Shown: positions 37,604 to 58,959, counted from the first letter of the stretch. The stretch is 64,000 nt of DNA from an uncultured Kiritimatiellota bacterium (GCA_934621385.1 CAKTUI010000008.1:2455-66454); one strand, 5' to 3'. A program made the numbers and translations. The notes: generated by a model from the sequence alone, not told the origin.

Positions 37604-38149
37604 TTACCAATCCCACCTTTTTGGCCGCGCCCATTTCTCTCTAGGGGCATAACGCGCCGCATGGGGCAAGGCAATCCCGCCAAGGAGGTTGTTCAATTCC
37701 ACAAGTTCAATCGCATCCGGTTCTGCTCCATAACCGCACAGAGACTGATGCGACAGTGCAAATGCCGTAGCTAATACATGAAACATTTTATCATCAATGC
37801 TTAGGCGATCGTGCGCAACCAGTTCGGAGACCGTCATGACTTGCGAGAACCTATATTTGCAATTCTTGTTTGCACTTTCAACGGGCAGTCTTAAGCGATG
37901 GAAAATACTTCCACCACCAGAATAACAAATCGGTCTACCATCTAGTATCTGTTCACACAAGTTCATAAACGGCATAACGCGTATCAAGTCTTGATTCTCA
38001 TATTGCCCTCTCAGAATAGACATAAGATTATCAGCGTCCCCAAATGAGAAATGGAAAAGGGCACTGCGGCGGAAGTTGATTCCGTCGGCACAAAAGCCTT
38101 GATTTGAACGCGGACTGTTACTGGGGGGGGGGGGGTATTTTTTGCACAC
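37604..38149 (-). CDS. Hypothetical protein (181 codons as tracked); 5' end runs through a C13 tract
   Basis: A long ORF in an AT-rich segment with no recognised motifs. The tracked start is a GTG immediately before the homopolymer, so the true start and frame are uncertain. Confidence 0.4.
   Translation of the reverse strand: MCKKYPPPPSNSPRSNQGFCADGINFRRSALFHFSFGDADNLMSILRGQYENQDLIRVMPFMNLCEQILDGRPICYSGGGSIFHRLRLPVESANKNCKYRFSQVMTVSELVAHDRLSIDDKMFHVLATAFALSHQSLCGYGAEPDAIELVELNNLLGGIALPHAARYAPREKWARPKRWDW
38123..38135. repeat. Homopolymer G13 (C13 on the coding strand)
   Basis: Counted directly from the sequence. Confidence 0.95.
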
Positions 38150-42576: not shown

Positions 42577-43533
42577 CTACAATGCCTCGTTAAGCTTCCG
42601 CGCCGCCTTGTCTGCAAGATGAGTGTAGCCAAACTTACGCAATCCAAGGACAAAGAGATCCTGTCCTGTACGGCAAGTCTCGTACAACCGCGTACGCCGC
42701 CCCTGTCGCCATTCGCCCAATCCCTTGTAATAAAACTGCCGCAACCCTTCGGCAATGATGAACGGCACATGCCCGTATTTCAGGCACTCTTTCAGCAAGA
42801 TTAAACGTCCAATGCGCCCATTGCCATCCTGGAACGGATGAATAGCCTCAAATCGAACATGGAGGTCAAGAAGCGTTTCAAAGGACTTCTCCGCCCCCTT
42901 GTACCAGGCGAGCAGTCTGGCCATCTCACGCGGGACATCCCCCACCGCACATGTCTCCATCTCGCCGACCACATTATCCAGTTTCTTGTACGCACCAACA
43001 GCAAACCAGCCCTTTCGACTGCCACTCGTGCCGCTCTTCAACTGCGCATGGAGCATCTTGACATAGCGCTCCGTCAGTGCAGCACCTGCCGATTCAATCA
43101 CAAGGTCAATGCAGCGGAAATGGTTCGCCGTTTCCACAATGTCGTCAACTGGAATGTCTTGGGCGAGATTGCCCACCATCTGCGTCTCAAATATCCAGCG
43201 CGTCTGCTCATGCGTCAGGCGACTGCCCTCCATATGGTTCGTATTGTAAGTGAAGTCAATCTGCAACCGATGGTAGAGTCCGCCAGGTATGCGCCCGCGC
43301 TTCTCGGCCTTGAGAGCCGCCCAGATGGTTGACGGCACACTCTTGGCACGGGGTTTACGCGGCGGACGCACCGCATCTGTCGGAATCTGCCACGCCTTCC
43401 CTTGAAGGTTGACACCGGGAACCGCCCCCCGTTCGCAGTAAAGTTGGACGCTACGCGGTGTCACGCCCCACTTCTTCGCGGCCTCCGCGACAGTCATATA
43501 CCTTCTCTTACGAGCCTCAAATTGACAAGCCAT
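42577..43533 (-). CDS. Fic/DOC-family protein with an N-terminal HTH
   Basis: Fic motif HPFQDGNGRIGR. N-terminus MTVAEAAKKWGVTPRSVQLYCERG resembles a MerR/excisionase-type HTH. The alternative start is at 43497. Confidence 0.85.
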   Translation of the reverse strand: MACQFEARKRRYMTVAEAAKKWGVTPRSVQLYCERGAVPGVNLQGKAWQIPTDAVRPPRKPRAKSVPSTIWAALKAEKRGRIPGGLYHRLQIDFTYNTNHMEGSRLTHEQTRWIFETQMVGNLAQDIPVDDIVETANHFRCIDLVIESAGAALTERYVKMLHAQLKSGTSGSRKGWFAVGAYKKLDNVVGEMETCAVGDVPREMARLLAWYKGAEKSFETLLDLHVRFEAIHPFQDGNGRIGRLILLKECLKYGHVPFIIAEGLRQFYYKGLGEWRQGRRTRLYETCRTGQDLFVLGLRKFGYTHLADKAARKLNEAL

Positions 43534-43548: not shown

Positions 43549-43715
43549 TATTTTCACCCCTCAGTTTTACGGACATAACTTTCGCTTCAGCATCAGCAAT
43601 GATAAAATCAGACGGGGCAACTGGAAGGAAAGGATGGAGCGGCATAGAAGAGCGAGCCATGTCCTCCGAATCACCTACCTGCCCACATAAAAATGCGCGG
43701 CATCCATCCACGGGC

Positions 43716-44843
43716 TCACCGCGCCCGACGACGCAAGATGCTTCTTAACGCACCCAGTATCGCATCCTCATCCCATTGCGTATTTTCAAGTCCAAACGTA
43801 ATGCGGATCGTGGACTCGGCAATCGCCTTCGGCACCCTAATCGCCTTGAGAACATGAGATACCTGCGTATTCTTCGAGTCACAGGCGGCACCCGTCGAAA
43901 CCGCGATACCCTTCATATCCAGAATATGCATCACTCCCTCAGCCGAATTGCCCGGAAACGCAACACTCACAAACCCCGGCAATCGTTTTGCGTCCGTTCC
44001 ACCAAGATAGACCACATTGGGAAAGAACGACCTCATCCCTTTGCAAAATCTTTCAGCAAGCCTATTCAGATGGACTGTATTCCTTGCCATATTTTCGCAG
44101 TTATACCGCAGAGCCGTTGCCATGCCGACGATTGATGCAACATTTTCCGTTCCCGCGCGAAGGCCGTTCTCTTGTTGCCCGCCATTTAGCAACGGTTCGA
44201 GTTTCATGCCCTTGCGAATATAGAGGAATCCGATGCCCTTGGGACCATTGAACTTATGTGCGCTCGCAGACAGAAAATCAACCCCCGCTTCCTGCACATC
44301 AATCGGGATGTGACCGACTGCCTGAACTGCATCGGTATGGAACAACGCTCCACGTTTATGTGCGAACTCTGAAAGCAAATGAATTGGATTGATTGTGCCT
44401 ATCTCGTTGTTGGCCATCATCACAGAGACAAGTCCAATCCCAGCCGTCCAGACCTTTGAAAGCCGCTCCGGCATGATGTACCCGCCACCATTACCAACTT
44501 TGGGGCGGACAAATATCACCTCGCGGCCTTTACGCGCTTCGCTTGCGGCGGCGTTTAGAATTGCGTGATGTTCATATGACGAAACAAGCAACCCGCCAGA
44601 AGAGCCCTTAATCACCCAATTGTCCGCTTCAGTACCACCACTCGTAAAGAATATCTCATCTGGTTCGGCATTGATACACTCGGCAATCGTCGCTCTCGCA
44701 TCCGCGACCGCCTTTTTCGCCGGTCTCGCCCATCCATGCAGACTTGACGGATTTCCGAAATCCTCCTTCAAGAATGGAAGCATCGCCTCCAACGCCTCTG
44801 GCATCAGAGGTGTTGTCGCGGCATGGTCGGCATAAACTTTCAT
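43716..44843 (-). CDS. Cysteine desulfurase (class V aminotransferase; NifS/IscS/DndA/SspA-like)
   Basis: PLP-lysine motif SAHKFNGPKGIGFLY and active-site Cys loop STGAACDS. Its ATG overlaps the stop of the upstream small ORF (ATGA). G+C is about 40-57% on sampled lines. Confidence 0.85.
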   Translation of the reverse strand: MKVYADHAATTPLMPEALEAMLPFLKEDFGNPSSLHGWARPAKKAVADARATIAECINAEPDEIFFTSGGTEADNWVIKGSSGGLLVSSYEHHAILNAAASEARKGREVIFVRPKVGNGGGYIMPERLSKVWTAGIGLVSVMMANNEIGTINPIHLLSEFAHKRGALFHTDAVQAVGHIPIDVQEAGVDFLSASAHKFNGPKGIGFLYIRKGMKLEPLLNGGQQENGLRAGTENVASIVGMATALRYNCENMARNTVHLNRLAERFCKGMRSFFPNVVYLGGTDAKRLPGFVSVAFPGNSAEGVMHILDMKGIAVSTGAACDSKNTQVSHVLKAIRVPKAIAESTIRITFGLENTQWDEDAILGALRSILRRRAR

Positions 44844-45370
44844 TGGTAAAATCCTTGATACATTCCCAATCCAATTTCTTCTTCAAGCAAATCGGAAATA
44901 CGTTGTTCAACATCCTGTGGGTAATGTGATACTGCCCATCGAAACATTCTACACGTATAAAAACTTTCAGGGAGTTGTCGAACAAATACTTCTGGTATAT
45001 CTTCTTCCGACGGCACATACTCGAATATGCCGCCTGTTACATCTATCTTCCAGTTCTCAAACTCCCAGTGATCTGTTGCTCCTTCACGTGGCAGAACAGC
45101 TATGTGTACATTGTGTGGATAATTTTGATGCTTCGCATAGCCATTCTTGGATACGCCACAGATATAGATGGCATCCCACGAATCTTGTGGAAATTCATCC
45201 ATGACAATCGTTTGTCCAGGCAAAAACTCTTTGTTAAGACGCGAGAACCGTTTGGAGTACTTACCCTTGATTGCGTTTGTGCAATGGTGCATAGGGTTGC
45301 ATCCATGAGCATACTTGGCGTACAGCCACATGAACTTGCTGCCATCGAAATTGTGAGTTAGCCGTATCAT
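44840..45370 (-). CDS. Hypothetical protein (176 aa)
   Basis: An uninterrupted ORF with ATGA overlaps at both ends. Very AT-rich. No motif recognised. Confidence 0.55.
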   Translation of the reverse strand: MIRLTHNFDGSKFMWLYAKYAHGCNPMHHCTNAIKGKYSKRFSRLNKEFLPGQTIVMDEFPQDSWDAIYICGVSKNGYAKHQNYPHNVHIAVLPREGATDHWEFENWKIDVTGGIFEYVPSEEDIPEVFVRQLPESFYTCRMFRWAVSHYPQDVEQRISDLLEEEIGLGMYQGFYQ

Positions 45371-45975
45371 TGGTTGCCATTCTTTGGAGGTTCTGGCGTA
45401 TAGAAAACAAGTCCTTCGCCTTGCTCGTTAAGCAATGAACAAGCTTCGTCTAACGTCTCATTATCGATATCATTCCATGTGTTCAAGTCTTGAAACTTGT
45501 CCATTAGGAAATGTTCGATGCCTGTGTAAGTTGTAAAGAAATGGATTTCATAGAAATTGCAAACGGGTATTAGGTTGATGAACCCATATAAGGAATTATT
45601 GACTTTATTTTCTATGCAATAAACAATGTCCTTTTTTACACTTGAAATATCGACAAATCTAGTCTCTTGACCATGCAGTTGTTTGGCAAATTCATCGTAA
45701 TCATTAAATAGACTCTCAATAGTCGCCAATGAAGTGCCTGCGACGCAATCCCAAAATGAAGTACTATTTACTACTTTTTGCAGAATTTCGCGAGCTATTT
45801 GGTCATTGATTCCGTTAAAACGATATAGAGGAAAGTCGGGAAAATTCCCCAATTCCACCCATATTCCCGATGAATCCATAACAGTAAATTGAACACCCAT
45901 ATCATAAGTTTTGATGATGTTGCCAATCGTCGGCTTTATTCTCGAAAGTAGATTGATTTTTTGCTCTCGTGTCAT
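45367..45975 (-). CDS. Hypothetical protein (202 aa)
   Basis: The start MTREQKINLL is preceded by GGAGGTG. No motif recognised. Confidence 0.55.
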   Translation of the reverse strand: MTREQKINLLSRIKPTIGNIIKTYDMGVQFTVMDSSGIWVELGNFPDFPLYRFNGINDQIAREILQKVVNSTSFWDCVAGTSLATIESLFNDYDEFAKQLHGQETRFVDISSVKKDIVYCIENKVNNSLYGFINLIPVCNFYEIHFFTTYTGIEHFLMDKFQDLNTWNDIDNETLDEACSLLNEQGEGLVFYTPEPPKNGNQ

Positions 45976-45979
45976 CTTA

Positions 45980-46504
45980 TTACACCTCCGCCACCCACGC
46001 TGGAATTGAATATGATTGCCCTGTTGTGGCAAGTAATTGCAAGGCCGCACCTATCCTATGATTCCCATCCAAGACATGGAATCGTCCCATTACAGGATAA
46101 ACAGCGACAGGGAGCTGATAGGTCCCGCTACGCTGAAGAATGGCGATGTGGTATTCCGTACTCTTTCTACAATAGTCATAATCGTATGTAGGATGTCTAA
46201 AGAATAACGTACCGTTATAATTTTGAAGCAGCCCATCGATGTCCGCTAAAGATTGTTGGGTTATATTGAATATGCTTGGTATGAATGATGCAGTTCGCCA
46301 TTTACAGGACGATTGCTCATGTAAGGACACTACAGAGAATATTCTATGCCAGGGCGTGTTGTATGTGAAATCCATGCATGAGTGAAATGGCCAATTGCCC
46401 ATGTCGTTAATGAGAGCCCTTATATACATATCGAACAACTGGTCTGGCATCCTTGAAAAGATGCCGCGCGCAACTGCTATATGCCGTTCTAAATGGTTGT
46501 CCAT
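45980..46504 (-). CDS. Hypothetical protein with a C-terminal ParB/Srx-like DGxHR motif
   Basis: QLPVAVYPVMGRFHVLDGNHRIGAALQLL resembles the ParB N-terminal / DGQHR-type (DndB-related) fold signature. Confidence 0.5.
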   Translation of the reverse strand: MDNHLERHIAVARGIFSRMPDQLFDMYIRALINDMGNWPFHSCMDFTYNTPWHRIFSVVSLHEQSSCKWRTASFIPSIFNITQQSLADIDGLLQNYNGTLFFRHPTYDYDYCRKSTEYHIAILQRSGTYQLPVAVYPVMGRFHVLDGNHRIGAALQLLATTGQSYSIPAWVAEV

Positions 46505-46521
46505 TACAAGTTCCCAATTAT

Positions 46522-46725
46522 TTATATGAACAGCTTGCAGCCTTGGGCCTTGAACTCTTCAATTTTTGCGAGGAGGTCTTCAACGGTCACACCAAGGTTC
46601 TCGGCGAGACACGGGAGGCAAAAGAACTTGGAAACATTCTCGCCAAGTAGTTTCTTGTTCAGACCGACGGCATCCCTGTCGGCCTCTCCTCCACATCCGA
46701 AGCATCTCTCTACTCGTTGTGGCAC
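46522..46725 (-). CDS. Small zinc-ribbon-like protein (67 aa)
   Basis: A CFGCGG ... FFCLPCL pair of CxxC motifs. The GTG start is preceded by AAGGAGG, 2 nt after the brxL stop. Confidence 0.5.
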   Translation of the reverse strand: MPQRVERCFGCGGEADRDAVGLNKKLLGENVSKFFCLPCLAENLGVTVEDLLAKIEEFKAQGCKLFI

Positions 46726-46727
46726 TC

Positions 46728-48215
46728 TTACGCCTCCTTCCGTATCTTGAGAGCCGGCAGATCTTTTCCCCTGTATTGCTCGTTCATAAGGCCCATCTGG
46801 TAGCGGATGGTATAACGCATCTTCATCGCCGGTCTAAAGCAATAACGCACAAAATCCTTCTCGGAGATGTCCGCCGGGGTGCGGACATTCGGGAATAGCA
46901 ATTTTATAAATGCCGTTGAAATGCGTTTGACCGCTTCAGTGTCGCGCTCGTCTGACCCGGACGGCACGTCAATCAATTCGTCAACAACGTGTCTATAGGA
47001 GCTATCGTCACGTAGCTGATGCAGAATCGCCGTAAAATACTCGGAGTTCAAAGCCCATCCGTCGATTTTGAGCGTACTGTTCATGCGTGGGATATTCCAT
47101 CCCTTAATAAAGCCGTGGAAGCGGTCAATCATCGCGGCATCTTGAAACAGTTTAGGTAGATTAGCAAACATATAGGCATAACCATCCTGCTTCATAATTT
47201 CAGGTGCGATGTTGCCGCACAAGACAAATCCGGAGTCCGCAGAGCTGGAGTAATTGCCAACCGAGAACGTCCCTTGCTCCAGATATCCCTGCATTACGCT
47301 CCCCATGCCATCCTCAAAGATCGTCTTTTGAATTTCATCCAAGACGATAAAGTCGTTTTGTCCGACGAGTCCAGACTCACGGCGTCCTGCATCATAGAAA
47401 AGTTTTGCGCGGGTCATCTTGTCGCTGGTGGAAAGCCAGCCATAGCGACTCACTTGCCCGAACAAGTAGGATTTTCCCGTCCCCATCGGAGCAAGCTCCA
47501 TCAAATTGAGGCGTTTTTCCGCAAATGGCAGCACTCGCGAAAGCATGGTCAATTTCATTATTTGCAGATCAGGAAGTTCTGCGTTCTCCGCTTTCGCAGC
47601 ATCATACCCCTCTGCCTTATAGTCAACCGCTCCGAGAATAATGTCAATCCATTCTTGGATCGAAAATTCATTACGTACGTCTTTGTAATAGTTCAAATCA
47701 ATGTCATACGGGCAGAAGTCCCGGAATGAGAGAAGCCTTATCTTACCGGGCATTTTAGGACGCGCCGTATCATCCGGCGGACGATATCCAAGCTCCAGCA
47801 TTCCCCACGTCTCATGCCCAGATGCCAACTTGCCTCTGCACTTGTCCCAGACATCAGCATCAATCATCGTCTCGCGATTCCGAAGACCAAAATCAGGCAA
47901 AGAGAAAGTCACTTCTCCAGTGACAACGTCTATGTTTACAACAATCTTAGCGAGTAGCTTGACGTGCTCAAAGCCAACCACGATTCTGTCTTTGATGCGC
48001 GTCCAGTCATCGTGTTTTGGTATGAATTCGTGGACAAAAGAAAGCATTTCTCCTGCGTCGAACACGCCGTCCGCATTCTCGAACCTTTGCAATAGCCAGT
48101 CGCGCATAAACGACGGCAACCCTATCGTCTTGAAGAGACTTGTCTGCGTCAAGTCCTTGAACACTGCCATCGACTCGAAGCACTTACGAAGTTTATCTGT
48201 GGTTTCCTGTGTCAT
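46728..48215 (-). CDS. brxL: BrxL-like ATPase, short form (no Lon-protease-like C-terminal domain)
   Basis: Walker A LAPMGTGKSYLF and Walker B FIVLDEIQ. The N-terminal region LPSFMRDWLLQRF resembles BrxL / TIGR02688-type proteins (from memory). Strong AAGGAGGT RBS. Confidence 0.65.
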   Translation of the reverse strand: MTQETTDKLRKCFESMAVFKDLTQTSLFKTIGLPSFMRDWLLQRFENADGVFDAGEMLSFVHEFIPKHDDWTRIKDRIVVGFEHVKLLAKIVVNIDVVTGEVTFSLPDFGLRNRETMIDADVWDKCRGKLASGHETWGMLELGYRPPDDTARPKMPGKIRLLSFRDFCPYDIDLNYYKDVRNEFSIQEWIDIILGAVDYKAEGYDAAKAENAELPDLQIMKLTMLSRVLPFAEKRLNLMELAPMGTGKSYLFGQVSRYGWLSTSDKMTRAKLFYDAGRRESGLVGQNDFIVLDEIQKTIFEDGMGSVMQGYLEQGTFSVGNYSSSADSGFVLCGNIAPEIMKQDGYAYMFANLPKLFQDAAMIDRFHGFIKGWNIPRMNSTLKIDGWALNSEYFTAILHQLRDDSSYRHVVDELIDVPSGSDERDTEAVKRISTAFIKLLFPNVRTPADISEKDFVRYCFRPAMKMRYTIRYQMGLMNEQYRGKDLPALKIRKEA

Positions 48216-48234
48216 CTTAAGATACCTCCTTCAA

Positions 48235-50409
48235 TCAAAAGAAATCGTCCTTTTTAATTTGTGCGCCACCGCTCTTCACCACGAAACGCACATCGTTGAT
48301 TTTTGTATTCCCGTCATAAACAACCGCAACATGGTCACCTGCAGAAGGCTTGGGGATTCGGACAGTGTAGCGTCCCGTTTCATTGCCGTCGGCAATCGCT
48401 GCATAGCTGATTCCATCGAATCTGACAGAAGGCGACATCAATGTTGAGGCGCAGAACAGCTGAAGAGTTATTTCCGTATCGCGGAATGTTACCTTGAATT
48501 CGTCTTCCACAAGGCGTACATGAACATTCTTGTCGAGCAATTCAAATTCTATGACCGGCACTACCATTTCCTCCAATGTAGCACCTCCGTGGATTTCAAC
48601 ATCGCCTTTCCTGCCGCCTTTGAAACGGTCGTATCCAGCAAGAACGTGCCATTTCTCGTCATCACTTTCCGTAACACAAGCCGGAAGGACGCCATCGAAC
48701 TCGCTTTTCCGACAGCATCTTCCACCATGTTTTCCTTTCTCCGGCAATTCCCACACCGTTTCAGACTTGGAAATCACAGCAAGGCGAGTCGCTCCGTGAT
48801 CGCTTGTGAGAACAACCTTGCTGCCGGGCTTCTTGCGAAGTCGCATTGCTATTGCATTTATAGACTCCTCGACAACTATCAATTCATGCGGCAGTTCCGT
48901 GGCTGCACCAGTTGACGGCTCGTCGTATTTCTCAAAGTCACCATGCTTTATCTTGTCTAGTCTGGATACAGGAGGCATCTTTTCGCCCTGCCATTCATCA
49001 TAGAAAGAGCGATTGACGCTAGTTATGGAAGGTAATTTCGCCCTGGCAGGCGTGACTTTCAATTTAAGGCCAAGGCGCTCTGCGGCAGATTGAATAAAGC
49101 CAAGGAATTCACAGCCGAGAGCGTCTATCCAGCAAAGAGCAACGCCATTGGTGCCAATACTTTCAAGAACGGACTCGCGTGTCGGCAAAGTGAACTGCGG
49201 ACGGTCTTCGGCAAAATCACGAGCAGCATCCATGAAGCTAGGCTCAATTCGCCCTAATAATTTTTGCCGTTTATAATCCTGAAAGTACTTCGCAAGCACC
49301 TCCACGAACTCACCACTCGAAAAGGAAAATCCGCGCCAGTAGTTCCACATCGCTGGGTATACATTTTCCACAGACACAGGAACCTCTCCTGCGTCCACAA
49401 TCAGCCGTGTTATCTCCTCGCGCTCCACCTCTGTGCAGTCCGTCATGTAGCGGATGCGTTCCGATGGATTGGCAATCCGTCGTGATTCGCGGATGTACTC
49501 AGTCACATCAGCCTTGTCAAATTGCGGAACAATCTTTTTCCTTGCATCATAGAGCCGAGCAAAACGACCATCGTCAACTGAAACATCAAGGATTGCGCAG
49601 AGAAGATTTCTGTGCCACTCTGAATATTGCCTGGTTTTCGATATGGCAAATGCAATATACTGGTCGTCGCCAGTACCGTCTTCAAGGAATCTCAAGAGTG
49701 AATCCGGACTTGACAAGCTATCATCGCGAGCTCGCTCATCATTCAGGAATGCCGTCCATTGTTTTTCTGGGAACATTGTCTCCAGGACGGGACTTTGAGG
49801 ATGCCGTTCCTTATACACTTCATATGCGGAATCAATACGGCGACACCAGTTTGTGTTTAAGGGAACAACTGTCGTTATGGCAGTTATCGAATTATCGCAA
49901 CCGTCCTCAAGAATCCGCAAGAGCGCCCTAAAGCCATTTGCTTTTGCGTTCTTGATAAGGCCGTCTCGAAAAATACGTAGCGACCAATGTTTTTCGGATT
50001 TTGCGAAGGACACGCCTCTTCGGCCCAGTATTCGAGGATCGTTTCTTGACTCTTCTTCGATAAACTCATGCACGCCCCATACTGGTACGACAAGACGAAG
50101 GCTGTGCAAAGGAAGCCCAAATATCCATTTCTTCACTTCTCTGTCGCCAGAAAGCGCAGCGTATTCGCCAATGCCAAGAAGAATCGCCTTGCCCTCCATG
50201 TGTGTAAGCGTGTCGCCAAGAGCGTCCAAGTCTGGAAGCGCATCGGATGCTCGGCAGAAATCGCTGACACGTACCTTCTCGCATGAGGAAAGCGATGTGA
50301 CAAGCATTGATAGGTCTGTGGACGCATCAAACGCCACGAAAAACGGGTTAGTCGCACCATTCCCGTTCAGATATTCCTGCGCAGCATTGACAATATCCAT
50401 GATCATCAT
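48235..50409 (-). CDS. pglZ: PglZ alkaline-phosphatase-superfamily protein
   Basis: 724 aa with CWIDALGCEF and VVLTSDHGATRL motifs characteristic of the PglZ domain. ATGA overlap with brxC. Confidence 0.8.
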   Translation of the reverse strand: MMIMDIVNAAQEYLNGNGATNPFFVAFDASTDLSMLVTSLSSCEKVRVSDFCRASDALPDLDALGDTLTHMEGKAILLGIGEYAALSGDREVKKWIFGLPLHSLRLVVPVWGVHEFIEEESRNDPRILGRRGVSFAKSEKHWSLRIFRDGLIKNAKANGFRALLRILEDGCDNSITAITTVVPLNTNWCRRIDSAYEVYKERHPQSPVLETMFPEKQWTAFLNDERARDDSLSSPDSLLRFLEDGTGDDQYIAFAISKTRQYSEWHRNLLCAILDVSVDDGRFARLYDARKKIVPQFDKADVTEYIRESRRIANPSERIRYMTDCTEVEREEITRLIVDAGEVPVSVENVYPAMWNYWRGFSFSSGEFVEVLAKYFQDYKRQKLLGRIEPSFMDAARDFAEDRPQFTLPTRESVLESIGTNGVALCWIDALGCEFLGFIQSAAERLGLKLKVTPARAKLPSITSVNRSFYDEWQGEKMPPVSRLDKIKHGDFEKYDEPSTGAATELPHELIVVEESINAIAMRLRKKPGSKVVLTSDHGATRLAVISKSETVWELPEKGKHGGRCCRKSEFDGVLPACVTESDDEKWHVLAGYDRFKGGRKGDVEIHGGATLEEMVVPVIEFELLDKNVHVRLVEDEFKVTFRDTEITLQLFCASTLMSPSVRFDGISYAAIADGNETGRYTVRIPKPSAGDHVAVVYDGNTKINDVRFVVKSGGAQIKKDDFF

Positions 50410-53400
50410 TCCTTTGAAAGGATCGCAAGCCCTACATCAAGCGAATTAACGACAAGATCTACGAGGTACTGCTTTGCTTCATCCGCACTCATTGCCCTTA
50501 CTTTTCCGCGCACTCTCTCAGCACAGTTCAAGTTGTATTCGCTTTCGGCAAGTTTCTGGAGCGTTGCTTCAAGACGCGGATCGACAAGCCAGCTGTCTGG
50601 GTCTGCACTCAACTTGTTCAGTCGAGACCTAACGGACGCAAGGTCTGTCAGCACTACCGCATAGCGGCCGAGAACGCCGCGTCGGAATGCATCGTCAGCC
50701 TTTTCCCCGTCAAACCAACAAAACACTTCTGGGTGTACAGTAAAGAAATCGAGTGCCGCATCGACATTTGCAACGGACGATTCCTTGTTATTCAAAGCAC
50801 CTATTGCCTTACGGACGCCGTCCAGAAGTGGCGTCCCCTCTGCCGGCACCATAGCGAGAACTGGTGTTGCAAATTGCTTCGCCCATGCCGACGGAGTTGT
50901 CGTGCCGGTTTCTTCATTCCACAGCGATAGCAACTTTGTCCGTCCCTGTTGACTTTTAATTTCAGAGACCTTCTGGACGAGCATCTGCTCGTAGGTCGGC
51001 TTATCGGCAAGGAACGACGATTTGTCCAACCCAGTAAGATAAAGATCATCCATCTCCTGTGTGTCAAGCCCTGAAAGTTGCTCGCTGTAAGTTGCCTTGA
51101 ACAAAGCAAGGCATCCTTCAAGCATATCACGGTTGACATCACCCATATCGGTGATTTCACGGAAGAACGCATCTCGCCTGTCATTCTGTTCCAGCCGCCC
51201 CCCAGATGCAATGTCCTTTAGAAGGCCAAGGAAGGTCTTGGATTGCGGCTTAAGTGCCACAAGAGTGGCACAGGGGATACGTATCGTGCGCGTTTTATCC
51301 CGCCACGCTTCCATACACTCCCAGAAAGAATTCACCGGCGTTATGAATCCACGCTTGGACGATTCCGCAACTATGCGGTAGTCCCTCAAAAGTGCGCGTA
51401 TTTCATTTTCTCCAGTCTCACGATGCCAGAGCCATGCGCCGTCAGTACCGAAACAACGACGGACATCAGCAAGAGGGTCGGAAGCGTTTATTTCTTCCGC
51501 CGTCTTTCGGAAAAGCCCATCATCAAATTCGTCAAGCCAAGCGTTCATTGCTTTAGTGGCATTTTCCTTTGTGAACAGAGCCGAAAGCCTGGCCTCCACA
51601 CCGGGATCACCTGCTGCCATGCGTCCAATCTCGGTTGCAACGCCGGAGAGCGTGGCACCTTTCTGATTGGCCGGATTGGTGAGGAGAGTAAATTGCTCGA
51701 TGTAGCGTTCCGAACCGACGGACTCAGGCAATGCCTCGAAACACCACAAGGGGTATTGGAAGTCGCGTATTCGCACGGCCAAATCATGCGCCACAATGTC
51801 TATCGAGGCATTCTCCCCAAGGTTGAACACCGCCTTTGCAAGATCTGCGAACCGCCGCTGTTCCTCTGTCAGAACTCCGATGTATGCTTCGTGATATCTT
51901 CCGCTACCAGTGCCGAGAACCTTCTTAAAACAGGCGAGAATCGCCTCTGTCATGTTCGCCACAGTGAGAGGCGGACTTTCTCCGTCTCGGACGAAGCGAT
52001 AATCCCCGCCCACATATTCTTTGAGGAGATATCCCACAAGAAAACCGTGCAACGCAGTAGGCATGAATCCAGCATCGAAGAGTGTTTCTATAATTTCGCC
52101 AAACTCGACTCTGCCTTCACCGCCAGACTTGAATGCGTATTTGAGCTTCTGCTCTACCTTTGACTTGATCTTGGAGATTGTCTGTGTAGGCGCGACTTTC
52201 CAATAATCCACTTTGTCTTTAACAGAGCCTATAAGGGCGTTTTCTGATGCGGCATCCATCTTGCCGCCTTTCTCCCCATTCGGGAGATGCCCAAGGCCAC
52301 CATACACGCCGGCGGACACCTCGGCTTTTGTCGCTTGGTTGAACTGAGTGTCTTTCAAGCCACGCTCAAACTCAAGCGCAAGTGGATACTTTTCAAGTAC
52401 CGACAAACGCATCTCTTCTCCAACCTCAGAAGCCCCGTGGCAAACCACACCAGTTGCATTTCGCTTCGTCCGCACGGTAAACGCACCAGTTGCAATTTTG
52501 TCTCTCCATGCGGAAAGTATCTTCTCCGCCTCGGATAATGCATTGTTGGACTGTTGCGCGTCTTTGCGAGCATACCAATTTGCTCTGGCCTTGTATTCAG
52601 CCCACTTTGCGAAATCGCCATCATCCAATTCCACGGAAGTCGCATCGATGAATACTACATTGCCGCTTCTCGGATCTGCGAGTGCCTTGCTTATCGCCTC
52701 TTTTGCAGCAACTGCATCCAGACTGTTCCGGCCAACCACAATCATGGCTCGCATCCTATAGTTCTTGGCATCTTGAGCCAAGAGCTGTCCAAGAATCTGC
52801 GAGAACGAATCCGGACCAGCAAGGCGTATGTCGAATCTCTCCTCCAATGGACGCGACAGCCGAAGCACCTCTTCGCGTTGCCAATCCTTCAGCAGTTCCT
52901 TCGTCTTGGTTGTATGGAGGTAATTCTCCTTGAGTTTTTCAATTTCCTGCAAATCGCGACCACCGGTGGCCATTGGTGCCTGATAGACACGCTTCCCATT
53001 CACCTCTTCCACAAAAAGAATCTTGTCGGAGTTTGCAAGCTTGTTGGCAAGTGTTATTCCCGTGCCGCTTTCGAGACCCTCCACGCCCTCGAACGCAAGG
53101 CGAAGATTCTCCTCTGTCGCAAGAAACTCCGGCGGATTGTTGAGTTTCTTTGCAAGCGCCTGAAATATGAGAATAGTTTTCAGAACACGCTTCTCGGCAG
53201 AAACGAGCTTGCTGGATTTGTCGGGATACACTTCGAGAATCGCCCTTACTTGTGCATCTAGATTGCTCTTCCCGGTTTCGCCGGTACCTCTCAGCGTCTT
53301 GCCAGTCTCGTAGAAGTAGTCCCAAAGCAGATCAACGCCTAGCACGTCACCGTTCTCTGGGGAATGGTTCTTTATGTACCACTTAAACGCACGGGCATCC

Positions 53401-54620
53401 TCTTCCGCAGCAATAAACGTGAACATACTCCGTTGATTAGAGTCAAAAAGCGCGGCGATGTTCTTGAGAGCCAATGCGGCATATGGATGAAAAGGCAGCA
53501 TAGCACGAAATACGCCCTCATCAACGTCCTTAAGCATCTTCGCAATCTTCCGCCGCGGTTCCTCCATGCGCTCGTTCAAATCGTCAGAAAGCGCATCCCA
53601 CTCCTGTTTGAAAGCAGGCTTCACCTTCAGCGCATCGCCGATCAGCTCAAATGCAATGTTTTCAGGAAGGCTTATCTCCATCGTCGGCTTGAAACGGTCG
53701 ACAATAATTTGTGCAGAATTGTCGTTTTCCGGCAGGAACGATGTCGTGAAATGGGTTACAATCACAAGATTGAATCTAGTCAAGCCGGAAAGTTCCGCAA
53801 GCGACTGCAATGTATCGAGCTTCGTCTTGTTGTTCTTAAAGAACGCAGAGAACTCATCCCACACAAGTATGAGATGCAGATTGTTCTTCTCTACAGTTTC
53901 GCGTATCCAGGATGCAAGGTCTTCCTTTGAGAATCGTAGCGCTGTTATACCCTTGTCCTTGGCGAGACGACGGATTTCCTTAAGCAGATCGTCCGCCATA
54001 CCGCTTCCCTTTAGTGTCGCAAGCACATCGTCCGCAGACTTGCCGGCGAAGCATCCCTTATGGCAATATGGCGATTCCTTAATAAGCGCGTTGAAATAAG
54101 CTCGTTCTGTATTGCCCTCCAACCACTTGGCAATGCCACCACGCAGGGTCGCACCCGCATCGTATGGTACGCCGGAGTCCTCCAGCGCCTTTGAAAGACT
54201 TGAAAAGACGGCCTCAACAAGGTCTTCCGGGCCGGATATTGCATCAGACCCGTGCCGAGCGGCAACAACGATTTTTCTCGCCTTCCGATGACCGGCGAGT
54301 TTCTTTTTAAGGTCGCCCTCTGCTTTGAGAGGCGCATAATCATCGAAGTATGTGTTGAAATCAACATCGCTGCAGGTCAGAAGGCTACGAAGCGTCCACG
54401 TCACCTGGCTCTTGCCTGTACCATACGCGCCATGAACCCAAATGGAGTGTTTGTCCATCTCGCTGCCGCGCGCAAGCATCTTCTCAAGACGCTTCAAAAG
54501 CGCGACGAAGGTCTTGTGGGGGTATGTCGCTTTCCATCCGTCCGGATGCGCATCAAATGTGGCCTGTGTAATCTCTGGCGGATTGTACTTAAGCTGGAAG
54601 TAATCGCTGTAGTTGGACAT
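50406..54620 (-). CDS. brxC: BrxC/PglY-like P-loop ATPase (1404 aa)
   Basis: Walker A VHGAYGTGKSQ and Walker B LILVWDEF near the N-terminus of a very long protein. Start set to the ATG at 54620, 9 nt after AGGAGG. The tracked start at 54641 overlaps brxP. Confidence 0.75.
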   Translation of the reverse strand: MSNYSDYFQLKYNPPEITQATFDAHPDGWKATYPHKTFVALLKRLEKMLARGSEMDKHSIWVHGAYGTGKSQVTWTLRSLLTCSDVDFNTYFDDYAPLKAEGDLKKKLAGHRKARKIVVAARHGSDAISGPEDLVEAVFSSLSKALEDSGVPYDAGATLRGGIAKWLEGNTERAYFNALIKESPYCHKGCFAGKSADDVLATLKGSGMADDLLKEIRRLAKDKGITALRFSKEDLASWIRETVEKNNLHLILVWDEFSAFFKNNKTKLDTLQSLAELSGLTRFNLVIVTHFTTSFLPENDNSAQIIVDRFKPTMEISLPENIAFELIGDALKVKPAFKQEWDALSDDLNERMEEPRRKIAKMLKDVDEGVFRAMLPFHPYAALALKNIAALFDSNQRSMFTFIAAEEDARAFKWYIKNHSPENGDVLGVDLLWDYFYETGKTLRGTGETGKSNLDAQVRAILEVYPDKSSKLVSAEKRVLKTILIFQALAKKLNNPPEFLATEENLRLAFEGVEGLESGTGITLANKLANSDKILFVEEVNGKRVYQAPMATGGRDLQEIEKLKENYLHTTKTKELLKDWQREEVLRLSRPLEERFDIRLAGPDSFSQILGQLLAQDAKNYRMRAMIVVGRNSLDAVAAKEAISKALADPRSGNVVFIDATSVELDDGDFAKWAEYKARANWYARKDAQQSNNALSEAEKILSAWRDKIATGAFTVRTKRNATGVVCHGASEVGEEMRLSVLEKYPLALEFERGLKDTQFNQATKAEVSAGVYGGLGHLPNGEKGGKMDAASENALIGSVKDKVDYWKVAPTQTISKIKSKVEQKLKYAFKSGGEGRVEFGEIIETLFDAGFMPTALHGFLVGYLLKEYVGGDYRFVRDGESPPLTVANMTEAILACFKKVLGTGSGRYHEAYIGVLTEEQRRFADLAKAVFNLGENASIDIVAHDLAVRIRDFQYPLWCFEALPESVGSERYIEQFTLLTNPANQKGATLSGVATEIGRMAAGDPGVEARLSALFTKENATKAMNAWLDEFDDGLFRKTAEEINASDPLADVRRCFGTDGAWLWHRETGENEIRALLRDYRIVAESSKRGFITPVNSFWECMEAWRDKTRTIRIPCATLVALKPQSKTFLGLLKDIASGGRLEQNDRRDAFFREITDMGDVNRDMLEGCLALFKATYSEQLSGLDTQEMDDLYLTGLDKSSFLADKPTYEQMLVQKVSEIKSQQGRTKLLSLWNEETGTTTPSAWAKQFATPVLAMVPAEGTPLLDGVRKAIGALNNKESSVANVDAALDFFTVHPEVFCWFDGEKADDAFRRGVLGRYAVVLTDLASVRSRLNKLSADPDSWLVDPRLEATLQKLAESEYNLNCAERVRGKVRAMSADEAKQYLVDLVVNSLDVGLAILSKE

Positions 54621-54633
54621 TACTGTTTCCCTC

Positions 54634-56910
54634 CTATACATTGAACAAGGCTATGACGTTAGCGGGAGTCTTGTCATCGGCGAGACGAACAAGCTCCAGG
54701 TCGTGTGTAGTGGTAAACGTAACGAAATCTGGATTTGTCCGTGAAAGCCCATTCAGGAGCGCCTCCATTTCGTCGCGCGCGAGCGCAAATATCTGCGCCG
54801 GGCTAACCCCCTCCGCCTCAACCGTGAAGTCCATAAGGCGTGAGAGAGGAAACTCCCAATATCCGCCACACTTTTCAGCGAACTTGTAGAGCGCATAAAG
54901 CATGACAAGCGGCGACGGCGCAACCGTCTTCGTTCGAGTGAGCGAAACGATGTCCTGTCCCTTTGATACGACCCGACCAAAGTGGAAGCGCGTACTTAGC
55001 GGTATGTTGCACAGCCTTCCGAATGCGCGAATAACCGACATCACCCCATCTGGCTTAAGCCCAGTGACAGCTATCATGTCGTATAGTTCCTGACGGGGGT
55101 ATTCGCGCCCCACATCCATATTCCGCACATACCATTCGATTTGTGGATTGTCATATGAGAGGTTGGTGAGAATCAAACCCCATGTATCCTCTGCGTTCAT
55201 GCCTATCCGCCTTGCTAATTCAAAGAATGGAGTTGCCTTATTCTTTGCAAGCAGTCCGGCATCTGAAAGGAAGCGTTTAAATTTAGTTATCTGCATAGGC
55301 CCCAGCGAGTTGTTTGACACAAAGTCAGAACCTCGGGAAAAGAAATCCGTGACCCATTCTGGCTTCGGGGCGTGCGTAGCGAATGTGTTTATGCTTTTCA
55401 TGTCTATTCTCTCCAGTGTTGCCTTCTTAAGTGAATCGGCTCGATAGCAGCCTTTCTCAATTTCATGGCATAGTCCGCAATGTATGCAATTGTCAATGTG
55501 TAGCCCATTCTTAAAAGAGAGCGCACCTGAACGACAATTCGCCTCACATTCACCGCATCCAACGCAATATGATGCCTTATAAAAACATTGTTTGAGCCTC
55601 CTACCAAGAGAGGTCTTCGTGAGTGCGGACGGATACGATACTATCAGCACACCATCTGATTCTGTGGCTTCTAAATCAACAGGTCCATTTAGTGTCTTGA
55701 TCCATTCTCGCCAGTCTGTTGTTGGATTAAGAAGGCGAAGTGTCGTACGGCCATCTTTGGTTGCTTCTTGTATCTTCTCTTCGTTACCCTTAATGTCCCT
55801 GCCGTTCTTTCGAGCGACCCATCCACATTTCGCAATATATTCATTTGTGTCAGGGCAACTAATGCTACTCTTTACGTAATTAATAAATCGGTCAACGCCA
55901 TCCTTATAGGCAGTATGCTCAAAATAATCAGAACGGCCACCTGCACCGAGGGGACAAAAAAGACACCCTACGCGCACCATTCCCTTTACATAGGCACCGT
56001 TAATGAGTAATTGACGCGAGAAAATATAAATCCAAACCTCTGCGCTTGACCATTCCTGCATCGCATTGAAGGAGTATTGCCCCATCTGTTTCTTACTAAA
56101 ATTCAGATAGTCATACTGTGAGCGAGCATCACTCTCATGTCCTCTCACTCCAACAAAAGCCATTCCCGTATAGTCTCTTTTCCCGAGTATCTCGCGGATT
56201 TTGAGCGTCTGAGGGACGGACTTATGGACGGTACAGCACCATCTAAGAGCATGTGATGGCGGTCCGAAGAGCCGCCACGATTCCTCTGGCGTAAAACAGG
56301 ACTTTGCACGGTAAAACGCGATACCATCCGCCTTGCATCTCGCTTCCACAGCCTCAACGGCTTTATAGGTGTCAGGGAATTCCATCCCCGTATCGCCAAA
56401 CACAACCATGAATGCGGTGCGGGGCAATGCGCGACGGACGAGTTCCAGAAGCGCAATCGAATCTTTGCCGCCCGAAAACGCCACATGGAAACAATCAAGC
56501 TTCTTTTCGTATTTGCGATAGATGTCGTATATCTTCTTGACGGTGAGCGTTTCCAGCGCCTCAATACGGAGACGGTTTTTTGCGATCATCGCCTCAACAT
56601 CCACGGGGATGAGTGTTGTTCCCTTTGGAAGTATCTCTTTGCCGGCCTCGTCCCTCAAGAGTTCAATTTCTGGTTTTACATAGAGGGAGCCGCCATTCGT
56701 CTTGGCTACCTTTTGACCGCGATACCAATAAAAATTCGACTCGGCCCAGAGGTACGGGGCGTCACTCGTGTTGTCATATTTCCAGAAATCTCCAAACCCC
56801 AACAAGTCGAGTTCTGCCGCCCATACTGGTCTGGGTTCTTTTGAGAATTCCGAAAGCGAATCCGCAAGTAGCAGGCCTCCTGTTTCTGGATCATGTGAAT
56901 ATGTGTACAT
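54634..56910 (-). CDS. brxP: BrxP-like PAPS-reductase / PP-loop ATP pyrophosphatase with an Fe-S cluster region and a ~250-aa C-terminal domain
   Basis: PP-loop AFSGGKDSIALLEL. PAPS-reductase-family body. Ferredoxin-like CVGCGECEANC...CIHCGLCHEIEKGC. The real start MYTYSHDPETGG at 56910 overlaps the upstream stop (TAATG). Confidence 0.8.
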   Translation of the reverse strand: MYTYSHDPETGGLLLADSLSEFSKEPRPVWAAELDLLGFGDFWKYDNTSDAPYLWAESNFYWYRGQKVAKTNGGSLYVKPEIELLRDEAGKEILPKGTTLIPVDVEAMIAKNRLRIEALETLTVKKIYDIYRKYEKKLDCFHVAFSGGKDSIALLELVRRALPRTAFMVVFGDTGMEFPDTYKAVEAVEARCKADGIAFYRAKSCFTPEESWRLFGPPSHALRWCCTVHKSVPQTLKIREILGKRDYTGMAFVGVRGHESDARSQYDYLNFSKKQMGQYSFNAMQEWSSAEVWIYIFSRQLLINGAYVKGMVRVGCLFCPLGAGGRSDYFEHTAYKDGVDRFINYVKSSISCPDTNEYIAKCGWVARKNGRDIKGNEEKIQEATKDGRTTLRLLNPTTDWREWIKTLNGPVDLEATESDGVLIVSYPSALTKTSLGRRLKQCFYKASYCVGCGECEANCRSGALSFKNGLHIDNCIHCGLCHEIEKGCYRADSLKKATLERIDMKSINTFATHAPKPEWVTDFFSRGSDFVSNNSLGPMQITKFKRFLSDAGLLAKNKATPFFELARRIGMNAEDTWGLILTNLSYDNPQIEWYVRNMDVGREYPRQELYDMIAVTGLKPDGVMSVIRAFGRLCNIPLSTRFHFGRVVSKGQDIVSLTRTKTVAPSPLVMLYALYKFAEKCGGYWEFPLSRLMDFTVEAEGVSPAQIFALARDEMEALLNGLSRTNPDFVTFTTTHDLELVRLADDKTPANVIALFNV

Positions 56911-58817
56911 TAGCGTTTCTCCAATTCTTTCATTCTGGAAACTACCGCCCCGACGGTTTTTGTCGAGCGACGCAGAACACATTGCGTCGCAACGAGAAAG
57001 TCTCCAACTTCTTCCACATCTGCCGCGACACCGCAACGAAGAGCTATGGTAGCAAAGGCATCCTCCGCGCTCCATTCGCAGTTCATGCACGGAACGACTG
57101 CACCCGATACATCTCTTGCAGGAACAGACGGTGACACAAGGCGAAATCCTGTGCTGGCTCGACGCAAAAACGCCTCAAGCAGAAACTCATTCCAAGCGAA
57201 CCCAGGAACCGCAGGAAAGTCCGCCAGATTGCCAAATGCACCGAAAGGCATTATGCATCCTTCACATATGTCCGAAATTGATTTTTCAATCGACGAAACA
57301 TCAAATGTGATCAGCGCCGGCGAAACAAAACATTCCCGGTCGACACGCACCATTTCTTCATGTGCGGTCTTCAGTGCTAACCACGGTGCAATGTTGTATT
57401 CTTTTGCGACTGTCTCTAGTTGTTCAAGCGACACATCAGGCCTTTCGCGCAAGAATGCATGAAGAGGAATCTGTCCATCTATACTTGCACCTTTTGCACA
57501 TACGATCTGCCCGTGAATGTCGAATTGCTCTGATAAAAAACGCTGGAAGAATGAGCGTCGAAGCGCACTATCCACCAACCTTCGGTCGTTCATGGCTGCG
57601 CTGTCATTGAGACACAATTGAGAAAGGGAGAAAAATCCCTCGGCTTTGATTGCGGTTTCACATTGCGATTTCCCGCGAGAGACCTCCGCATCATCGAATT
57701 CGATCCGTGATACGATGGCATACGAATTCTTACCGTTCCTGACCAAATCGCTCAACCTCCTACACAGACTACGAATAAACGCCATGTCCACATAGGGCAC
57801 TCGCTTAGAAACCACACTTATGTCAATAACAGGACCCCTTTGTGACATGATAATTGAATTAAAGTGCTGAGTAATCGACCCCGCCCACTTGGGCACGAAG
57901 CATTCCCCTTCAATCTGATATGTATCTTGCGCCTCCCGCATAATTGCCTCTCGAAACATTTCGGGAGAGATGATGCCAATTTGCATAAGTTCTTGTCCAT
58001 GGAACTCCATCAGGCGCGAAAACTGAAATATGGAGTATCCTTGTCCGACAAGTCTTTCGATAAGCTTACGCCACCCGCCATCTTTGGATGATGGCCGAGG
58101 AAACACTTTCCCGTCGTGAATAACGCCTATTCTCGGAAAGACAGAATTGAAGTCAAAGTCCTTCGGCAAATCCTCGTCGAAATACTCGTGGTAAAACTTG
58201 CGGATTTTATTACGGTCGATTATCGAACTGGGTCTGACTCCGTTTGGGAACTCCGACTCCAACAATTCAGCAATCTGATTTTCATAGGGGAATTCATTAC
58301 CATCCCAATCGCATCGCCCCGGCATCGCTTCCGTCCTTTCCTCTCCATCGGCCGAATGGGGCGGACATAGGAGACCTTCGCTTTCTTTCGCGTCACTTTT
58401 CTCCGCTGAACGAAAATCTCTGTATGTGACCCGGACATCATCGTTGGACAAATTGCACCACTCAATAAGCTTGAGGGCTCGCAAGAAAGGAGTGCTACCC
58501 GACCCATTCAAGTCGATGTAACAATCCCGATCAATCTGATAAGGGTTGGCCATCCCGTACCGCGTTGTCCGCAACCACCCCAGATCCTTGGTTCTGATGA
58601 GCCGCTGCAATTGCCACCCCTTGAAGGTCCACAGGTGCTTGGCAAGCGAAACGAGGACATCATTCGCAGAGTTCACCGGAACCGTCTTCCCGATGATTTG
58701 CAAAGCGCTCAGTTGCGCCCTTGGGGGCATTTTCTTCACTGCGTCAACCAGTGGGCAGATATAGGATAGGCCTGCTGTTGAACAGCCATTGGATTCCGAA
58801 AACTCACAATCAGGCAT
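56910..58817 (-). CDS. Hypothetical 635-aa protein, first gene of the BREX-like operon
   Basis: An uninterrupted ORF with RBS GGAGGA 10 nt upstream of the ATG. Its stop overlaps the brxP start. I recognise no catalytic or binding motif. Confidence 0.7.
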   Translation of the reverse strand: MPDCEFSESNGCSTAGLSYICPLVDAVKKMPPRAQLSALQIIGKTVPVNSANDVLVSLAKHLWTFKGWQLQRLIRTKDLGWLRTTRYGMANPYQIDRDCYIDLNGSGSTPFLRALKLIEWCNLSNDDVRVTYRDFRSAEKSDAKESEGLLCPPHSADGEERTEAMPGRCDWDGNEFPYENQIAELLESEFPNGVRPSSIIDRNKIRKFYHEYFDEDLPKDFDFNSVFPRIGVIHDGKVFPRPSSKDGGWRKLIERLVGQGYSIFQFSRLMEFHGQELMQIGIISPEMFREAIMREAQDTYQIEGECFVPKWAGSITQHFNSIIMSQRGPVIDISVVSKRVPYVDMAFIRSLCRRLSDLVRNGKNSYAIVSRIEFDDAEVSRGKSQCETAIKAEGFFSLSQLCLNDSAAMNDRRLVDSALRRSFFQRFLSEQFDIHGQIVCAKGASIDGQIPLHAFLRERPDVSLEQLETVAKEYNIAPWLALKTAHEEMVRVDRECFVSPALITFDVSSIEKSISDICEGCIMPFGAFGNLADFPAVPGFAWNEFLLEAFLRRASTGFRLVSPSVPARDVSGAVVPCMNCEWSAEDAFATIALRCGVAADVEEVGDFLVATQCVLRRSTKTVGAVVSRMKELEKR

Positions 58818-58944: not shown

Positions 58945-58959
58945 GGGGGGGGGGGGGGG
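58945..58959. repeat. Homopolymer G15 (C15 on the operon strand) in the predicted 5' leader
   Basis: Counted directly. It lies 128 nt upstream of the ATG at 58817. Confidence 0.95.

Follow-up and report, generated by a model that had tools for sequence, protein, structure and literature searches.

Does an operon that joins a cysteine desulfurase to the core genes of a bacteriophage exclusion (BREX) system mark the DNA of its host with sulfur, and what do the small genes lodged in front of the desulfurase contribute? Both questions are raised by an operon in a 64,000-nucleotide stretch of DNA from an uncultured Kiritimatiellota bacterium (GCA_934621385.1 CAKTUI010000008.1:2455-66454), referred to below as the window. 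An earlier account made from the DNA alone, called here the sequence-only reading, had proposed that this BREX-like system marks DNA by phosphorothioation (PT). We have compared the genes of the operon with family models, predicted structures and related loci (designated by L numbers), and we consider it highly probable that a complete type 4 BREX, carried on a low-G+C island of horizontal origin, here marks host DNA with PT and not with methyl groups. PT marking by type 4 BREX is already known; the proposal was right, and it is not new.

The ten consecutive open reading frames (ORFs) listed in Table 1 form one operon, since the spacers between successive genes measure only -8 to +19 nt all the way from 58817 to 43716. 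The 5' end at 58817 lies one gene beyond the limit of 56910 set in the sequence-only reading. The G+C content of the operon ORFs (0.37-0.52) is below that of the flanks (0.60-0.62), where a Na+/H+ exchanger gene and mnmE are found on one side and a trp operon (trpA, trpB, trpGD) on the other. Nothing marks out an integration site: the window is free of tRNA genes, and the flanking ORFs that were scanned include no integrase. All four defining genes of type 4 BREX, brxP, brxC, pglZ and brxL, are present and in order. BrxP is matched by the PADLOC BrxP model from model position 2 to 758 of 779 (E 1.5e-231) and BrxC by PDLC02485, the PADLOC BrxC model, over its full length (E 1.6e-201). PglZ scores 335.1 bits with the NCBIfam model for BREX-4 PglZ (NF033445, cut-off 140) and E 1.4e-90 with PADLOC PglZ, and BrxL scores 345.3 bits with TIGR02688 (cut-off 329.3) and E 1.2e-96 with Pfam BrxL_ATPase. 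No methyltransferase domain was found in any ORF of the operon by Pfam and PADLOC scans. As judged from gene content and order, the locus is an intact, canonical type 4 BREX operon.

BrxP, whose ATG start at 56910 gives a protein of 758 aa and overlaps the stop of the upstream gene by 1 nt, is composed of a PP-loop domain of the phosphoadenosine phosphosulfate (PAPS) reductase family resembling SspD and DndC, a middle domain, two ferredoxin-type four-cysteine motifs and a C-terminal domain that is probably DUF4007/SspB-like. The PP-loop SGGKDS and the Fe-S cysteine cluster pointed out in the sequence-only reading were both located, the former at 56458-56475 and the latter as CxxCxxCxxxC at 55534-55566 and CxxCxxC at 55468-55488, and they are supported by Pfam matches to PAPS_reduct (E 5.9e-28) and Fer4 (E 9.2e-5). 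The same account had proposed comparing the BrxP C-terminus with DUF4007/SspB, and this comparison is weakly positive by way of the homologues. An exhaustive phmmer search with the C-terminus gave 366 relatives, many of them free-standing proteins of about 250 aa. Among the 41 homologues that were aligned, 18 match Pfam DUF4007 (PF13182; best E 5.3e-6), colinear with the C-terminal third of the Pfam model, and six PADLOC SspB models are matched as well (best E 6.4e-6). The window's own segment matches the SspB model PDLC02765 at E 0.0069; the Pfam side of the comparison gave nothing for it, as weighed below. At the level of sequence profiles, the relationship of the BrxP C-terminus to SspB is probably real, though remote, which agrees with the HHpred-level homology described by Yuan et al. 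(PMC12914056). It is noted that a profile of the C-terminal homologues, when compared with PDB sequences for SspB, returned only a chance match to Vps25.

For homologous systems, both PT modification of host DNA and exclusion of phage have been demonstrated (PMC12914056). Yuan et al. (bioRxiv June 2024; Nat Commun 2026; PMC12914056) found PT dinucleotides by liquid chromatography-tandem mass spectrometry in strains with type 4 BREX only. Deletion of brxC abolished PT and complementation restored it, and PT was reconstituted by brxP and brxC in a host supplying the SufS desulfurase. In their account, BrxP fuses SspD with SspB (DUF4007), and BrxC is homologous to SspC. A 2026 survey in Nucleic Acids Research (PMC12839542) reported that, of 457 taxa with type 4 BREX, 255 (56%) have a cysteine desulfurase, accompanied by a small zinc-finger protein; compared with DndC, BrxP was found to have an Fe-S domain and an extra middle domain and to be without the DndC-specific cysteine dyad. 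The domain evidence from the window, taken with these experiments (PMC12914056) and this survey (PMC12839542), sustains the central proposal of the sequence-only reading. The window represents one more intact example, and a dedicated desulfurase is already known as a frequent sixth component of type 4 BREX.

Comparison with the known systems shows where the locus is ordinary and where it departs from them. Its four core genes and their order are those of the type 4 BREX of Bacteroides salyersiae (PMC12914056) and of the systems in the survey (PMC12839542), with the PAPS-reductase, Fe-S and probable DUF4007 parts in BrxP, no methyltransferase in the operon, and a desulfurase and a small zinc-finger gene appended, as in about half of type 4 systems. 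Unlike the published systems, it adds a tandem winged-helix gene upstream of brxP and a cassette of 174-, 202- and 176-aa genes that separates the zinc-ribbon gene from the desulfurase, and it is without an mcrA-type gene. In SspABCD of the Vibrio cyclitrophicus type, the counterparts are SspA for the desulfurase (PADLOC E 4.4e-117), SspB/DUF4007, more tentatively, for the BrxP C-terminus (by way of its homologues), SspC for BrxC (nine PADLOC models, best E 2.1e-20) and SspD for the BrxP N-terminus (PADLOC E 8.5e-13). In contrast to Ssp, a single protein combines the parts played by SspB and SspD, the SspB-model similarity being marginal, and the restriction partner is PglZ/BrxL where Ssp has SspE or SspFGH. 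With DndABCDE the locus has in common a NifS-like desulfurase, a PP-loop Fe-S enzyme of the PAPS-reductase family, a P-loop ATPase and, in the cluster, a protein of the ParB/sulfiredoxin (Srx) fold; however, there is no DndE, and BrxP matches DndC over the PP-loop domain only (PADLOC E 7.6e-9).

By analogy with these systems we infer PT at this locus, a target motif for it and a role for the operon's own desulfurase. In the first step, the pyridoxal phosphate (PLP)-dependent desulfurase would take sulfur from L-cysteine and hold it as a persulfide on its loop cysteine. The sulfur would then pass to BrxP, in which the PP-loop (SGGKDS) ATP-pyrophosphatase and the Fe-S motifs would fill the role of SspD/DndC and the C-terminal DUF4007 domain that of SspB, the DNA-binding and nicking partner. 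The SspC-like BrxC ATPase, together with BrxP, could insert the sulfur at a short sequence motif, and PglZ and BrxL would serve as the exclusion arm against unmodified phage DNA.

The desulfurase closes the operon, and the features seen in its sequence beforehand are confirmed. It is a class V aminotransferase (Pfam Aminotran_5 E 1.6e-75; PADLOC DndA E 1.9e-116, close to the SspA value above) with the PLP-lysine motif SAHKF (aa 194-198, 44250-44264) and the cysteine loop STGAACDS (aa 316-323, 43875-43898); its start codon and the stop codon of the 176-aa ORF before it overlap by 4 nt (ATGA), and its G+C of 0.52, against 0.60-0.62 in the flanks, is that of the island. Desulfurases 75% and 72% identical to it end the same sub-operon in the BREX-4 loci L001 and L094. 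The cores of these loci are far more distant: in L001 the identity to the window is 30% for BrxP, 23% for BrxC and 42% for BrxL, and in L094, where only a C-terminal fragment of BrxL is sequenced, it is 52% for BrxL. A further member of the sub-operon was overlooked in the sequence-only reading. What looked like a gap of 223 bp separating brxL from the 174-aa ORF holds the gene for a 67-aa zinc-ribbon protein, homologues of which occupy the same position in L088 (77% identity), L001 (50%), L094 (52%) and L100 (44%). This is probably the small zinc-finger protein that accompanies the type 4 BREX desulfurase (PMC12839542), and the gene probably belongs to the desulfurase sub-module. Considering that the zinc-ribbon, ParB/Srx and desulfurase genes keep 50-75% identity across loci (window 43716-46725, L001 9779-12628, L094 435-4870) in which BrxL and, in L001, BrxP and BrxC have diverged to the extent just given, sequence comparison suggests that the sulfur-donor sub-module moves between divergent BREX-4 cores. 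The desulfurase of the operon would be the sulfur donor of the system.

Table 1. Features of the type 4 BREX operon, contexts of the 174-aa family and comparison with locus L096
Feature	Position or locus	Strand	Basis or value
Operon of ten consecutive ORFs	43716-58817	minus	gene calls, tight spacing
Tandem winged-helix protein, 635 aa, first operon gene	56910-58817	minus	AlphaFold2, Foldseek, synteny
BrxP, 758 aa	54634-56910	minus	PADLOC, Pfam, homologue searches
BrxC/PglY P-loop ATPase, SspC homologue, 1411 aa	50406-54641	minus	PADLOC BrxC
PglZ, type 4 BREX variant, 724 aa	48235-50409	minus	NCBIfam NF033445, PADLOC
Short BrxL (ATPase, without Lon protease domain), 495 aa	46728-48215	minus	TIGR02688, Pfam
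Zinc-ribbon protein, 67 aa, CxxC...CxxC...GCKLF, GTG start	46522-46725	minus	ORF search, homologues
ParB/sulfiredoxin-fold protein, 174 aa, DGxHR motif	45980-46504	minus	AlphaFold2, Foldseek, profiles
202-aa protein, no family match, G+C 0.37	45367-45975	minus	ORF; homologue in L088
176-aa protein, no family match, ATGA-coupled on both sides	44840-45370	minus	ORF; homologue in L088
Class V (NifS/IscS/DndA/SspA-type) cysteine desulfurase, 375 aa, last operon gene	43716-44843	minus	Pfam, PADLOC
Terminator-like hairpin and T-run	43696-43712	minus	consensus match only; begins 4 nt past desulfurase stop
G homopolymer, 15 nt	58945-58959		128 nt upstream of first operon gene
174-aa family in BREX-4, after zinc-ribbon gene	window; L088/89; L001-3; L094/95; L100/101		
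174-aa family after RadC, behind hsdM-hsdS, then RhuM or Schlafen/AlbA gene	L004-6; L008; L090		
174-aa family after Sel1-trypsin protein, then AbiH (L091-93)	L091-93; P0015 contig, ending right past gene		
Genes of the 635-aa family	L096 10001-12235; L097 10001-12391; L098 492-2432		
BrxL, BrxC and PglZ, L096 versus window	L096		identity 97%, 94% and 88%
BrxP, L096 versus window	L096 12235-14508		identity 75%, falling to 38-56% at aa 300-400 and 600-650
635-aa protein, L096 versus window	L096		identity 72% over C-terminal ~457 aa; ~30% in N-terminal ~150 aa

The winged-helix gene and the three-gene cassette do not occur in the main text of PMC12914056 or PMC12839542, nor does a ParB/Srx protein in the supplements searched. 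The remaining value of the locus may lie in the ParB/Srx accessory, in the winged-helix first gene and in the divergence pattern described below.

The 174-aa ORF had attracted notice for the motif VLDGNHRIGA, which is indeed present, at 46046-46075. D146, G147, H149 and R150 are invariant in 17 members of the family; the motif reads DGNHR or DGVHR and never has Q. The AlphaFold2 model of the protein has a predicted local distance difference test score (pLDDT) of 88.6, and the approximately 40 top PDB matches returned by Foldseek are almost all ParB/Srx proteins, as are most of those in BFVD, with PadC, sulfiredoxin, ParB, Noc, KorB and SbnI represented. The Foldseek probabilities are near 1 and the E values modest, from 5e-4 to 1e-1. 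In a profile search the core 'PVxVYP..G...VLDGxHR' aligns with SbnI (E 0.18), and a ParB-like PHROG family is matched at E 0.0077. As modelled, the 174-aa protein has a ParB/Srx fold. Within that superfamily (ParB, Noc, KorB, PadC, sulfiredoxin, SbnI/free serine kinase, and DUF262 of GmrSD/SspE) the predicted fold of residues ~65-174 finds its match, including the strand-turn 'PVxVYPxxGxxxVLDGxHRxxAA' of the nucleotide-binding core. The protein differs from the other members in that it consists of a minimal domain standing alone, preceded by a helical extension peculiar to its family (conserved GNWPF), and has no helix-turn-helix (HTH), nuclease or kinase domain at the C-terminus, and its sequence similarity to characterised proteins is not significant, E 0.18 being the best.

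The family is rare, with 16 homologue clusters at 48-96% identity among 5.8 billion proteins. A scan of 185,579 species genomes gave one match, a false positive (the NHL-repeat surface protein in L007), and no member was found in viral contigs or PLSDB plasmids. A metagenome scan added three true homologues, the 77 other loci kept being weaker matches. Those weaker matches that were examined belong mostly to an abundant ParB-like family of ~365 aa (L012-L075, for example L040 9728-10846), in which a ParB-like core (GSVGRYxDFD...LPPVKLYQIKDEYYVLDGNHR) at the N-terminus is combined with a conserved domain at the C-terminus; the DGNHR core is all that links it to the 174-aa family, and it has no other relation to the locus.

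The true homologues stand in three contexts (Table 1), of which type 4 BREX is one. In the second, the preceding RadC is highly conserved (89-92% identity; L004-L006, L008 and L090); in the third, the Sel1-trypsin protein that precedes the gene in L091-L093 is ~1000 aa long, with AbiH and Fic downstream. No PAPS-reductase or desulfurase gene was found in the sequenced stretches of L004-6, L008, L090, L091-93 and P0015. Even among the BREX-4 loci, L100 retains the 174-family gene with ~2.7 kb sequenced downstream that holds no desulfurase. The 174-aa protein is a ParB/Srx protein of defence islands, neither a DndB orthologue nor specific to sulfur modification, and its family seems to be carried repeatedly as cargo by defence operons. 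Another ParB-superfamily gene trailing a type 4 BREX was seen on the archaeal plasmid pNP174 of Methanosphaera sp. ISO3-F5 (L102, 14001-25925), where brxP-brxC-pglZ-brxL is followed by a DUF262 (ParB-like, SspE-type) gene and there is no desulfurase.

The two genes that follow, for the 202- and 176-aa proteins, have no family match in Pfam (E<=10 included), NCBIfam, PADLOC or PHROG. Both have homologues in L088, 76% identical and in the same position for the 202-aa protein and 70% identical for the 176-aa protein, and both persist in L100 as remnants of 69 and 111 aa, respectively. The slot between the 174-aa homologue and the desulfurase is filled by an unrelated 314-aa gene in L001 and by a 511-aa gene, partly related to the 314-aa gene, in L094; none of the slot proteins (202, 176, 314 and 511 aa) has a recognisable domain. 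The 314-aa gene was also considered as a fusion of the 202- and 176-aa genes, to which it has no similarity. A gene of the HAD family stands before the 174-aa homologue in L094 and L100. The 174-, 202- and 176-aa genes are best read as a variable accessory cassette.

What the cassette does can be read in more than one way. Accessory cassettes, for example of Fic, RhuM, AbiH or Schlafen/AlbA genes, are often found inside restriction or BREX operons. The three genes could likewise be an independent, hitch-hiking cassette between the zinc-ribbon gene and the desulfurase, outside the sulfur chemistry, and to this we assign an even chance. Their G+C is the lowest of the island (0.37-0.44), the genes that separate the 174-aa homologue from the desulfurase vary from locus to locus, and the 174-aa family occurs in three unrelated defence contexts, trailed by RhuM, AbiH or Schlafen-type genes. 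However, the genes are tightly coupled in translation to the desulfurase (overlaps of -4 nt), divergent BREX-4 cores carry the 174-aa gene together with those for the zinc-ribbon protein and the desulfurase, and none of the three proteins has a detectable effector domain such as that of a toxin or nuclease.

A closer tie to the modification is contained in the sequence-only reading, in which the 174-aa protein was DndB-like. The protein would then be the DndB counterpart of the system, a ParB-like, nucleotide-responsive regulator that limits or tunes PT. The ParB/Srx fold, which is also that of DndB, together with the invariant DGxHR speaks for this part of the claim, as do two BFVD matches of the model annotated 'DNA-sulfur modification-associated protein', the placement of the gene, in five distinct BREX-4 loci, with brxL/zinc-ribbon on one side and the desulfurase on the other, and the 60-68% identity that the protein keeps where identity falls to 42-52% for BrxL and, in L001, to 30% and 23% for BrxP and BrxC. 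Membership of the DndB family did not hold: no DndB model in Pfam, even at E 10, in NCBIfam or in PADLOC is matched, and the ORF was rejected as a DndB family member. DndB has roughly 350-400 aa, and the 174-aa protein is less than half that size. The Q of the DGQHR motif is replaced by N or V, and the occurrence of the same family in the RadC/type I restriction-modification (R-M) and Sel1-trypsin/AbiH loci, where the sequenced stretch has no sulfur genes, speaks against confinement to sulfur loci. The arrangement in L100 described above also counts against a DndB counterpart. We therefore regard a DndB counterpart as improbable. In a related proposal, the sulfur-donor branch of type 4 BREX would have in the 174-aa protein an accessory not described before, acting with the zinc-ribbon protein and the variable genes next to the desulfurase. 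As a nucleotide-dependent governor, similar to DndB in function but from another family, it could couple the activity of the desulfurase and BrxP to the state of the cell or to DNA, and type I R-M and other defence operons could have taken up the same switch. This proposal is put forward tentatively, and we think it rather unlikely to be correct as it stands.

Several observations weigh against PT marking by this operon. The case for PT here is one of analogy, drawn from the genes and from homologous systems. The last 269 residues of the window's BrxP have no Pfam match even at E 10, and every DUF4007 match among the homologues is under the Pfam gathering score (best 24.6 versus 27 bits). The desulfurase is closest in the PDB to generic NifS/IscS sequences (up to 299 bits, versus 170 for SspA, 6m4j, and 149 for DndA, 3vax), and it falls under the NCBIfam equivalog cut-offs for DndA (TIGR03235, 286 versus 480 bits) and NifS (TIGR03402, 394.7 versus 530.75 bits). 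Because published PT synthesis needs no operon-encoded desulfurase, the enzyme may also be redundant with housekeeping ones. Its assignment to PT rests on context and not on sequence, namely the G+C of the island, the translational coupling and the 72-75% identical copies in BREX-4 loci.

Two alternatives concern BrxP and the desulfurase. BrxP could carry out some other sulfur or adenylation chemistry, for example making a thiolated base, with the desulfurase feeding that reaction or only building the Fe-S cluster of BrxP. PP-loop/PAPS-reductase enzymes also make thiolated tRNA bases (PMC12914056), DndA assembles the Fe-S cluster of DndC according to the title of a cited paper, and BrxP has the extra middle domain and ferredoxin-type cysteine motifs and is without the DndC-specific cysteine dyad (PMC12839542). 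However, PT dinucleotides are found in homologous BREX-4 systems, where their gain and loss track brxC and brxP (PMC12914056), and the window's BrxP fits the BrxP family model end to end, so that we hold this chemistry to be very improbable. Slimmer still is the chance that the desulfurase is a housekeeping NifS/IscS gene merely adjoining the island, as its best PDB and NCBIfam similarities would have it, considering its island-like G+C and ATGA overlap with the preceding island gene, the 72-75% identical gene closing the equivalent sub-operon in two other BREX-4 loci, the desulfurase reported in 56% of BREX-4 taxa (PMC12839542) and the lack of IscU/NifU-type Fe-S assembly partner genes beside it.

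With PT marking by a type 4 BREX as the preferred reading, the first gene of the operon and its divergence may bear on how a target would be chosen. The gene encodes a 635-aa protein not described in the sequence-only reading. There is no match for it in Pfam, NCBIfam, PADLOC or PHROG, and a profile of its family found nothing among PDB sequences. The family has 47 homologue clusters, most of which share just the C-terminal ~457 residues (~72%) and differ in their N-termini. A homologue stands immediately upstream of brxP in each of the four related loci examined. In the AlphaFold2 model (pLDDT 85.8), an alpha/beta domain that varies within the family is followed by a conserved string of winged helices towards the C-terminus, and the top Foldseek matches are the tandem winged-helix proteins UFL1, SelB, Stn1 and STK19. 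The 635-aa protein may be a further component of type 4 BREX. The comparison of the window with its close relative L096 (Table 1) indicates that BrxP and the winged-helix protein are diverging much faster than BrxC, PglZ and BrxL, and this suggests the pattern expected of target-specificity determinants. The divergence bears on which component sets the PT target motif, a point that the brxC swap by Yuan et al. did not settle (PMC12914056).

The surroundings of the operon contain several further features. The G homopolymer upstream of the first gene is a possible slipped-strand phase-variation switch for the whole BREX operon. The terminator-like sequence past the desulfurase belongs to a class of sites whose count in the region is not above chance. 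A second homopolymer, of 13 G (poly-C on the coding strand), lies at 38123-38135 in codons 6-10 (PPPPS, that is, YPPPPSNS) of an unannotated 181-aa ORF (37604-38149, minus strand), within a small G+C dip downstream of mnmE, and the ORF is a candidate for phase variation. On the downstream side of the operon, behind its own 182-nt upstream spacer, an HTH-Fic gene (42577-43533, minus strand) encodes a protein that matches the PADLOC candidate defence family PDC-S04 (E 4.3e-89); Fic genes are also present downstream of the 174-family gene in L092.

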